IMG/VR virus record: IMGVR_UViG_2579779049_000042
Reading direction: 5' to 3' (one strand)
DNA length: 4,968 bases
Source of the DNA: a virus
Taxonomy: Duplodnaviria; Heunggongvirae; Uroviricota; Caudoviricetes
The position numbers were made by a program, and so were the translations under genes. The notes beneath the pieces were generated by a model. It ran no database searches, was not told where the DNA came from, and saw nothing but the letters and a program-made list of their open reading frames with translations. The first letter of the stretch is position 1. Each line of letters starts with the position of its first letter. This document shows, one piece after another, positions 1,454-1,880 of the stretch.

Positions 1454-1652
1454 CGCCTTCTTCCTCCGTAATGGTTTTCTGAATTTGGCCACCTGAACAG
1501 AGCTCACCAAAGCTATGGATGTCGGTATTTCCACAATACCAAGATGGCGAAAATAACTGCATGATAAGCCTCAGGGAAAAGGGAAGACACTACCCCCGAT
1601 AATTCAGAAACAAATCGAAATACATGAACTAAAGAAAAAACCACAACAAACA

Positions 1653-1694
1653 GAAATAGAAATAGAAATAGAAATAGAAATAGAAATAGAAATA
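1653..1694. repeat. Perfect hexanucleotide microsatellite (GAAATA)7
   Basis: Seven uninterrupted GAAATA copies, read directly, in the divergent intergenic region between the ninG/HEG start (minus) and the AT-rich plus-strand ORF. Sits in a polypurine-rich stretch of the plus strand from about 1560 to 1700. Confidence 0.95.
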
Positions 1695-1880
1695 TTAAAA
1701 CAGACCACCACATTCCTGATGTCATACTCACTAAACAATTTTTCGACAACATGGTAGCTCATAGAACGTTATCGTGTAGACACCCTCTGCTACGTATTCG
1801 GTGTTCAGTGCAATATCTACAAATACTGGAAAAATCTAAAATCGAGGCAAGTTTTTGGTGATAACTATAGTTAGACTATA

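Follow-up and report, generated by a model that had tools for sequence, protein, structure and literature searches.

A perfect (GAAATA)7 array in an EHEC prophage nin region matches the typing locus VNTR-9 and is very probably a neutral, slippage-driven repeat

A run of seven GAAATA hexamers lies between two divergent genes in a stretch of viral DNA of 4,968 nucleotides (IMGVR_UViG_2579779049_000042; this whole stretch is called the window below). A sequence-only reading of the window had offered three explanations for it, namely a slipped-strand contingency switch, a protein-binding array, and a relic of the genome from which the surrounding insert came. We asked what the array is, how its length behaves among isolates, and whether it is likely to act on the genes on either side.

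The array and its prophage setting

The seven units at 1653-1694 (42 nt) are all perfect, as the sequence-only reading had it, and no other simple-sequence repeat in the window reaches 12 nt. Tandem Repeats Finder reported a larger span (1648-1694, period 6, 7.8 copies, 97% matches, consensus AAATAG) because a degenerate AAACAG unit stands before the perfect array. In Sakai, in E. albertii and in several alleles of E. coli the leading unit is itself AAATAG, so that these arrays count one unit more in the AAATAG register. When 300 dinucleotide-preserving shuffles were searched for perfect arrays of period 4-9, the longest one measured 18 nt versus the 42 nt observed; the length of (GAAATA)7 is far above chance. 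The distances given earlier were also correct, since the array starts 200 bp upstream of the HNH endonuclease gene (ATG 1453) and 235 bp lie between its other end and the ATG at 1929. The plus strand had further been described as almost entirely purines, which was overstated: purines make up 71% of positions 1560-1700 (A 56%, G 15%, C 15%, T 14%), or 66% with the array left out, and the strand is better called A-rich. Three structural or binding possibilities were ruled out on the unit itself. Triplex or H-DNA is incompatible with the T that the unit carries on the purine-rich strand, the GAAATA unit lacks the self-complementarity for a hairpin, and a Fur-box-like hexamer array (NATWAT) fits no register of GAAATA or TATTTC.

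The window is identical (100%) to E. coli strain 95JB1 (NZ_CP021335.1), which we take to be an O111 Shiga-toxin-producing strain, and many O111:H8/NM genomes match it from base 331 onward at 99.8-100% identity. It is part of the nin region of a lambdoid prophage (Table 1). The GC content is about 50% in ninG and ninE versus 27-43% over the HNH gene, the intergenic region and the AT-rich cassette gene, and the ordinary lambdoid phages 434, 21 and HK544 match the window at its ninG and ninE ends only. The drop in GC and the confinement of these matches to the two ends indicate that the block of HNH gene, array and cassette is an insertion into the nin region.

Table 1. Features of the window, with positions counted from its first nucleotide
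Feature	Position	Strand	Remark
IS1203/IS629 (IS3 family) element, 3' end	1..330	+	Matches of other genomes to the window start at 331
ninG (Rap)	328..912	-	3' end clipped by IS1203 insertion
HNH endonuclease gene (HNH_3 and weak AP2), 188 aa	887..1453	-	ATG 1453, GGAGG Shine-Dalgarno
VNTR-9 forward primer site GCGCTGGTTTAGCCATCGCCTTCTTCC	1438..1464	+	Exact match; primer from PMC3321953 Table A1
Intergenic region with array	1454-2009		Between HNH gene and cassette
79-aa ORF, array read as (FL)n	1513..1752	-	ATG upstream in 8/8 loci; N- and C-termini differ (indels, IS30)
TR1 forward primer site ACTGCATGATAAGCCTCAGG	1556..1575	+	Exact match; primer from PMC2246123
52-aa ORF, array read as (IS)n	1604..1762	-	PGAP "hypothetical protein" when array long; no Shine-Dalgarno
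Degenerate leading unit AAACAG	1647..1652		Directly before (GAAATA)7
VNTR core, perfect (GAAATA)7	1653..1694		AAATAG in MLVA literature, TATTTC on minus strand
Right flank, 14 nt TTAAAACAGACCAC	1695..1708		Common to window and O157 Sakai Sp17
Conserved island, 57 nt	1859..1915	+	100% identical in E. coli and E. albertii; whole intergenic region 86%
AT-rich cassette gene, divergent from HNH gene	2010..3781	+	TTG start, GGAGG 5 nt upstream
ninE	4285..4467	-	Marks lambdoid nin region together with ninG

The cassette gene is elsewhere a single ORF of 590 aa that begins with TTG after GGAGG. In those other genomes PGAP places its start at the TTG equivalent to position 2010, which lies 316 bp from the end of the array, and one-base indels between loci move the ATG at 1929 relative to the frame of this TTG. 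The window copy has lost 1 bp near 2904, and the resulting frameshift leaves a product of 301 aa from the TTG. The DNA of the cassette is AT-rich (27-40% GC), and the 590-aa family is confined to E. coli, E. albertii, Salmonella and Providencia, hosts that we take to be enteric pathogens carrying type III secretion systems. A homologue in E. albertii adjoins nleF. Because of this restricted host range and the nleF neighbor, we regard the family as a candidate virulence-associated moron. Searches of Pfam, NCBIfam and PADLOC with the cassette protein gave no match, and the structure that AlphaFold2 predicted for the 590-aa product with an alignment of 18 sequences (mean pLDDT 38.7, pTM 0.25) was too poor for a fold search.

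Correspondence with VNTR-9 and variation in copy number

The AAATAG register of the array is familiar from EHEC typing. TR1 is an MLVA marker with the repeat AAATAG, a repeat size of 6 and the forward primer ACTGCATGATAAGCCTCAGG (PMC2246123 Table 2); VNTR-9 is the same as Vhec4 and TR1 (PMC3321953 Table 1), and O157-9 joins these equivalences (PMC3768571 Table 1). VNTR-9, O157-9 (Keys et al., 2005), TR1 (Noller et al., 2003) and Vhec4 (Lindstedt et al., 2003) are thus names of one locus. The window contains the 6-bp repeat of this locus, the TR1 and VNTR-9 forward primer sites beside the array, and a flank that aligns with the O157 locus up to an IS30 junction, and isolates differ in copy number by whole units. 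A reverse primer site past the array, which would complete an amplicon, is missing: even with 3 mismatches allowed, the window has no site for the TR1 or the VNTR-9 reverse primer, and both sites are likewise absent from the copy in an O157:H7 Stx1 prophage. As judged from its unit, flanks and primer sites, the array is the EHEC typing VNTR known as VNTR-9, O157-9, TR1 or Vhec4, and as such was already known; the sequence-only reading had missed this identity. EHEC typing by this locus has been in laboratory use for about twenty years, and VNTR-9 is retained in the Japanese 17-locus scheme (PMC10062581).

A composite query, made of the left flank of the window and the reverse-primer site, recovered the canonical O157:H7 locus, including those of Sakai and EDL933. 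The Sakai locus lies in prophage Sp17 (NC_002695.2 3490314-3490839), and the left flank of 215 nt is 99.2% identical to the window in all 60 O157 genomes listed, Sakai and EDL933 among them. The Sp17 locus and the window have in common the 6-bp unit, the left flank with both forward-primer sites, the HNH and ninG genes on the left, the 14 nt past the array, and a length polymorphism by whole units. Beyond these 14 nt the two part. In Sakai an IS30 terminal repeat (TGTAGATTCAATTGG...) starts at the equivalent of window position 1709, 14 bp past the last GAAATA, and the IS30 remnant of Sp17 replaces everything from there on, the cassette included; in the window there is no IS30 past the array, and the original intergenic DNA and the cassette continue. 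Both reverse primers, that of VNTR-9 and that of TR1, are located within the IS30 remnant of Sakai Sp17. Because the forward primers match the window while the reverse primers sit in this remnant, the comparison identifies the window as an uninterrupted, IS30-free paralogue or allele of the locus, and the O157 typing target as an IS30-truncated derivative. The two copies reside in different prophages, that of the window coming from an O111 strain.

The locus was found in 523 of 5,426 complete E. coli genomes, with the right flank intact in 244 of them. IS30-free copies occurred in O111, O26, O145 and some O157 Stx1 prophages. Four phage records, which represent double deposits of two Stx1 phages, also contain the locus, at 7 and 17 units. 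Some O157 strains hold both copies at differing lengths; strain 2571, for example, has 13 units in its Stx1 prophage and an Sp17 amplicon of 532 bp, one unit more than the 526 bp of Sakai. Since the TR1 and VNTR-9 primer pairs need the IS30 remnant, no product would be obtained from an IS30-free copy. Null alleles of VNTR-9 amount to 31.7% (PMC3321953), and the dependence of the primers on IS30 may contribute to this high rate. The presence of two independently evolving copies in one O157 strain also matters for in silico MLVA calling from assemblies.

The comparison of copy number across isolates, which the sequence-only reading had called for, revealed anything but invariance, as arrays of 5 to 23 units stood between nearly identical flanks. 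Window-type loci fell into 13 length classes (5, 6, 7, 8, 9, 10, 11, 12, 13, 14, 15, 17 and 23 units; 63 genomes among the matches listed) by unit counts derived from the span of a fixed 501-nt query, and direct reading of the sequence in eight loci confirmed 7, 13, 23 and several other counts and disclosed one allele with a G-to-A interruption in the array. Even O111:H8 strains that are 99.8-100% identical over 4.6 kb carried 6, 7, 8, 12, 13 or 14 units. At the O157 Sp17 locus, 14 amplicon sizes between 496 and 574 bp, all equal modulo 6, were found (60 genomes among those listed). No odd/even or clustered pattern of copy number was seen in this sample of about 120 genomes among the matches listed, in which subtle length preferences could escape detection. 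Copy number was also indifferent to the state of the cassette: the frameshifted 301-aa allele occurred with 7, 8, 9 and 14 units, and arrays in Sp17, which has lost the cassette, vary to the same degree.

These observations agree with the typing literature. For VNTR-9, 15 alleles with 6-23 repeats are on record, and the diversity index is 0.90 (PMC3321953). In passage experiments covering hexamer VNTRs the mutation rates ranged from 1e-5 to 1e-3 per generation, and serial passage of Vhec4 yielded two single-unit insertions and one point mutation, which together amount to 1.3e-4 changes per generation (PMC3777172). A close parallel is TR2/O157-10, (TGGCTC)n. Like the window array it is a perfect repeat of 6 bp carried by a prophage, and its length too changes in whole units; the Sakai prophage that holds the VNTR-9 array also holds (TGGCTC)24, about 1.35 kb away. 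TR2 differs in that it falls within the annotated gene ECs_3507, whereas the window array is intergenic, and in its much greater length and instability.

Regulatory, RNA and coding readings of the array

A hypermutable array in a divergent intergenic region, beside an AT-rich and horizontally acquired gene (27-40% GC), invites the idea of a rheostat or contingency element, in which array length would alter spacing, helical phasing or H-NS binding upstream of the cassette or the HNH gene. One unit of 6 bp corresponds to about 0.57 helical turn, and slippage would then produce heritable, reversible differences in expression of the kind described for hmw1A/hmw2A and nadA. The restriction of the cassette family to enteric pathogens, its nleF neighbor in E. 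albertii and the retention of a perfect array in that species all speak for such a role. We therefore looked at where promoters could lie. A strict sigma-70 scan of positions 1400-2100 detected no promoter, and a terminator scan of the same interval detected only a weak terminator-like site with a 5-bp stem on the minus strand (1597-1581). The best candidate in a relaxed scan consists of a -35 element, TTGACG, at 1881-1886 and a weak, TG-extended -10 element near 1902-1910. It falls in the conserved island listed in Table 1, which also contains the palindrome ACTATAGT, and we infer that this island is the promoter/operator of the cassette. About 187 bp lie between the end of the array and the candidate -35 (1881) downstream of it, and this gap, together with the distance to the cassette start codon and the lack of any -35/-10 pair around the array, weighs against the rheostat.

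In Haemophilus the copy number of the heptamer repeats upstream of H. influenzae hmw1A/hmw2A and of the TA repeats of hif sets expression, as does that of the TAAA tract of nadA in N. meningitidis. The window array resembles these Haemophilus and Neisseria loci as a hypermutable short repeat that occupies a divergent promoter region and precedes a gene with a possible role in host interaction. However, those loci carry their repeats in the ORF, in the 5' UTR or within the core promoter, and a dependence of expression on copy number was shown for them, whereas the window array is about 187 bp upstream of the candidate promoter, has a unit that is a multiple of three, and varies beside a dead or deleted gene. 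Of the features that define a classical simple-sequence contingency locus, the array has the hypermutable simple-sequence repeat. It is not an in-ORF repeat with a unit that is not a multiple of 3, being intergenic with a 6-bp unit, and slippage is therefore unable to switch a reading frame; nor does it lie between -35 and -10 elements, since arrays of 42-138 bp are too long for a promoter spacer, or at another defined regulatory position. The array does not occupy the positions of the classical loci.

Several further observations run against the rheostat as well. Copy number followed no odd/even or clustered course, as described above, and it varied equally where the cassette is replaced by IS30 or is a pseudogene. 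More distant members of the cassette family lack the repeat: it is absent upstream of the 71% E. albertii and the 48% Salmonella cassette homologues, both of which lie outside the HNH-ninE arrangement. A literature search on the locus tags ECs3504/5 and Z3935/6 and on Sp17 in combination with VNTR found no functional study, and after twenty years of typing no function is ascribed to the locus in the literature found. We consider the rheostat improbable. The proposal of a slipped-strand contingency switch thus divides into two parts. Slippage is borne out by the 5-23 units and by the gains seen on passage (PMC3777172), but the switch is not, given the 6-bp unit, the distance from any core promoter and the variation beside a dead or deleted cassette.

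The array could alternatively act at the level of RNA, either as a plus-strand (AAUAGA)n leader or sponge for Hfq whose effect would scale with copy number, or as a minus-strand (UAUUUC)n site, similar to a rut site of Rho, ahead of the HNH gene. Read on the plus strand, (AAUAGA)n consists of A-R-N triplets without exception, and A-R-N repeats are the motif of the Hfq distal face and an in vivo motif in EHEC (PMC4104026). Folding of positions 1560-1760 on both strands gave structures not more stable than those of shuffles (z = +0.75 and +0.26), and ideas of a structured RNA were therefore dropped; an unstructured array on both strands is what Hfq and Rho sites require. The minus strand is moreover the direction of early phage transcription, (UAUUUC)n is free of G, and on this strand the array falls in a gap of more than 2 kb that has no sense-strand gene. 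On the other hand, a minus-strand C content of 17% is less than would be expected of a rut site, and no plus-strand promoter candidate reads through the array, the best one lying downstream of it. The supplementary sRNA tables of Hfq-CRAC in Sakai have no entry at the array (about 3,490,5xx), the only Sp17 entry found there being EcOnc06 at a distance of about 4 kb. A search of the whole window against Rfam at E values up to 1 found no family, the single hit being a chance, sub-threshold microRNA match at 3811-3878. Together these points make an RNA element very improbable.

A third possibility is that the array encodes part of a small hydrophobic protein of variable length on the minus strand, either (FL)n in a 79-aa ORF or (IS)n in a 52-aa ORF. 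On the minus strand the array can be read through in each of the three frames, and changes of 6 bp stay in frame and never break them. An ATG stands upstream of the (FL)n frame in all eight loci, Sakai included; the (IS)n ORF is annotated by PGAP, and the ORFs Z3935/Z3936 have been drawn over the locus in EDL933 (PMC3321953). An open frame over TATTTC repeats nevertheless follows from the unit itself, which yields no stop codon in any of the three frames. Neither ATG is preceded by a Shine-Dalgarno sequence, and searches of Pfam, NCBIfam and PADLOC with the small ORFs across the array gave no match. Frame, start and stop are not conserved among diverged copies. In one E. albertii locus a 1-bp indel fuses the (IS)n start to the (FL)n frame and leads to an early stop, in one E. 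coli locus a 1-bp deletion shortens the (FL)n product, and in Sakai the N-terminus of (FL)n, including its ATG, is supplied by IS30; what looks conserved is the repeat alone. We conclude that the two ORFs are probably not genes and that the "hypothetical protein" of PGAP over long arrays is probably an artefact, since a Shine-Dalgarno sequence is lacking and the ends of the ORFs are not conserved. A protein of variable length is accordingly very improbable.

Slippage, neutrality and meaning

To see whether the motif is special, we scanned 185,579 species-representative genomes and found (GAAATA)5 or longer in at least 120 unrelated species, and none of the matches listed for these species had the EHEC flanks around it. 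Two control hexamers with the same composition as GAAATA were at least as frequent in viral contigs, where 27 non-EHEC matches of (GAAATA)5 compare with 48 of (GAATAA)5 and at least 120 of (GATAAA)5. Because the controls are as common or commoner, the motif has no provenance signal. GAAATA arrays look like a generic product of slippage in A+T-rich DNA, with no recognizable binding array or donor signature, and the idea of a donor relic found no specific support in these scans.

A copy of the prophage in E. albertii (93% protein identity in the cassette) has a perfect array at the equivalent place, although the surrounding intergenic DNA is only 86% identical to that of E. coli. This could reflect selective maintenance of the array. 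Alternatively, slippage homogenizes arrays, and phages move between hosts.

In EHEC (and E. albertii), then, the array is set in the nin region of lambdoid prophages, between the HNH gene and the divergent, AT-rich putative moron gene. Its copy number changes by whole 6-bp units, independently of the state of the flanking genes, and the changes would arise through replication slippage on a perfect, unstructured array of 83% A+T. Parker and Marinus reportedly found in 1992 that 6-nt loops evade MutS-dependent mismatch repair, which handles loops of up to about 4 nt. If loops longer than about 4 nt escape MutS, hexamer arrays would be unstable even in repair-proficient cells, and the dominance of 6-7-bp units among EHEC VNTRs would have the same cause.

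We judge it very probable that the array is a known VNTR in a non-coding spacer of the nin region, neutral, driven by slippage and without a dedicated function. Neutrality is favored because the array varies where the cassette is deleted (Sp17) or frameshifted (the 301-aa allele), and because there is no strict promoter, no RNA structure or Rfam family, no conservation of the ORFs and no enrichment of the hexamer. The present analysis, which is one of sequences, gives no support to the control of any gene by the array. There is a slim chance that array length tunes the presumably H-NS-silenced promoter region of a candidate virulence gene, or that an (FL)n micro-protein or an Hfq-binding (ARN)n tract is at work.

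The biological weight of a slippage-driven, neutral VNTR is small. The array is a rediscovery of a standard epidemiological marker of EHEC, and its known value is in MLVA typing. The practical by-products are the IS30 dependence of the primer pairs, the two paralogous copies in some O157 strains, and the uncharacterized 590-aa family. Were any of the functional readings true, a routine MLVA allele would be a functional, heritable expression polymorphism in EHEC, and if the array were shown to modulate an adjacent gene, the MLVA data collected worldwide would become a record of functional polymorphism.

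Cassette gene and its putative control elements

The AT-rich cassette is a single uninterrupted 590-aa gene in 27 of the 32 complete copies examined, and the copy in the window is frameshifted by a 1-bp deletion near position 2904. The family, which had no match in Pfam, NCBIfam or PADLOC, is confined to E. coli, E. albertii, Salmonella enterica and Providencia alcalifaciens. The S. enterica homologues (648-685 aa) are flanked by cdd and a DUF218 gene, and a 71% homologue in E. albertii adjoins nleF and an AvrPphF-ORF-2-like gene. The cassette product is a candidate type III effector or virulence moron. 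An AlphaFold2 model of the protein was not usable (pLDDT 38.7); as drawn in this poor model, the protein is largely helical and its first ~120 residues are disordered.

Comparison of E. coli with E. albertii revealed that an island upstream of the cassette was free of differences, against 86% identity for the intergenic region overall. The island, in which a -35-like element (TTGACG), a weak TG-extended -10 and the palindrome ACTATAGT are located, probably serves the cassette gene as promoter/operator. Downstream, an Rfam search gave a sub-threshold match on the minus strand to the plant microRNA family MIR1444, with 27.9 bits (E = 0.027) against a gathering score of 80. The site is an A+T-rich inverted repeat and no genuine member of that family. 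The repeat is possibly the cassette terminator.

Features of the window and of compared loci
Feature	Location	Strand	Remarks
IS1203/IS629 element	window 1-330		inserted in final codons of ninG (328-912)
Conserved island, 57 nt	window 1859-1915		perfectly conserved, E. coli vs E. albertii
AT-rich cassette gene	window 2010-3781	+	also in the O157:H7 Stx1-prophage copy (L001, 5598-7370) and compared loci L005-L010
A+T-rich inverted repeat	window 3811-3878	-	3' of cassette stop codon; sub-threshold Rfam match
114-aa ORF	window 4624-4968	opposite to Dam methyltransferase fragment	last codon at window end
(GAAATA) array	L014 (Proteus alimentorum) 2969-3199
(TGGCTC)24 array	L004 (Sakai, NC_002695.2) 5611-5754		inside ECs_3507

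Insertions and apparent insertions in the neighboring genes

The HNH-AP2 endonuclease gene, which shares 26 nt with the beginning of ninG (window 887-912), occupies the position of ninF in classical lambdoid phages and looks like a free-standing homing-endonuclease insertion gained together with, or beside, the cassette. At the other end of ninG, the stop codon now lies within IS1203/IS629 sequence. Among complete genomes, this junction was recovered as one continuous match only in 95JB1; two further O111:H8 strains covered the entire window, but in two pieces. Upstream of ninE (window 4468-4968), only a fragment of the phage Dam methyltransferase gene is left. In another compared locus (L002, 8112-9833), an IS91-family transposase gene directly follows the counterpart of the 114-aa ORF, so this ORF appears to belong to an IS91-type insertion.

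Hexamer arrays beyond the window

Perfect (GAAATA) arrays of at least five and at most 20 units were found in the Proteus locus and in at least about 120 other loci (L015-L133), from numerous unrelated sources among bacteria, archaea and contigs of giant viruses. Control hexamers of the same composition formed arrays just as often. Long arrays of A+T-rich hexamers are generic and widespread.

The (TGGCTC)24 array of Sakai is the MLVA locus TR2, also named O157-10 or Vhec1, the least stable O157 VNTR in one study (PMC3777172). The VNTR-9 array of Sp17 is only ~1.35 kb away from it, so two classical typing loci are physically linked in one prophage.
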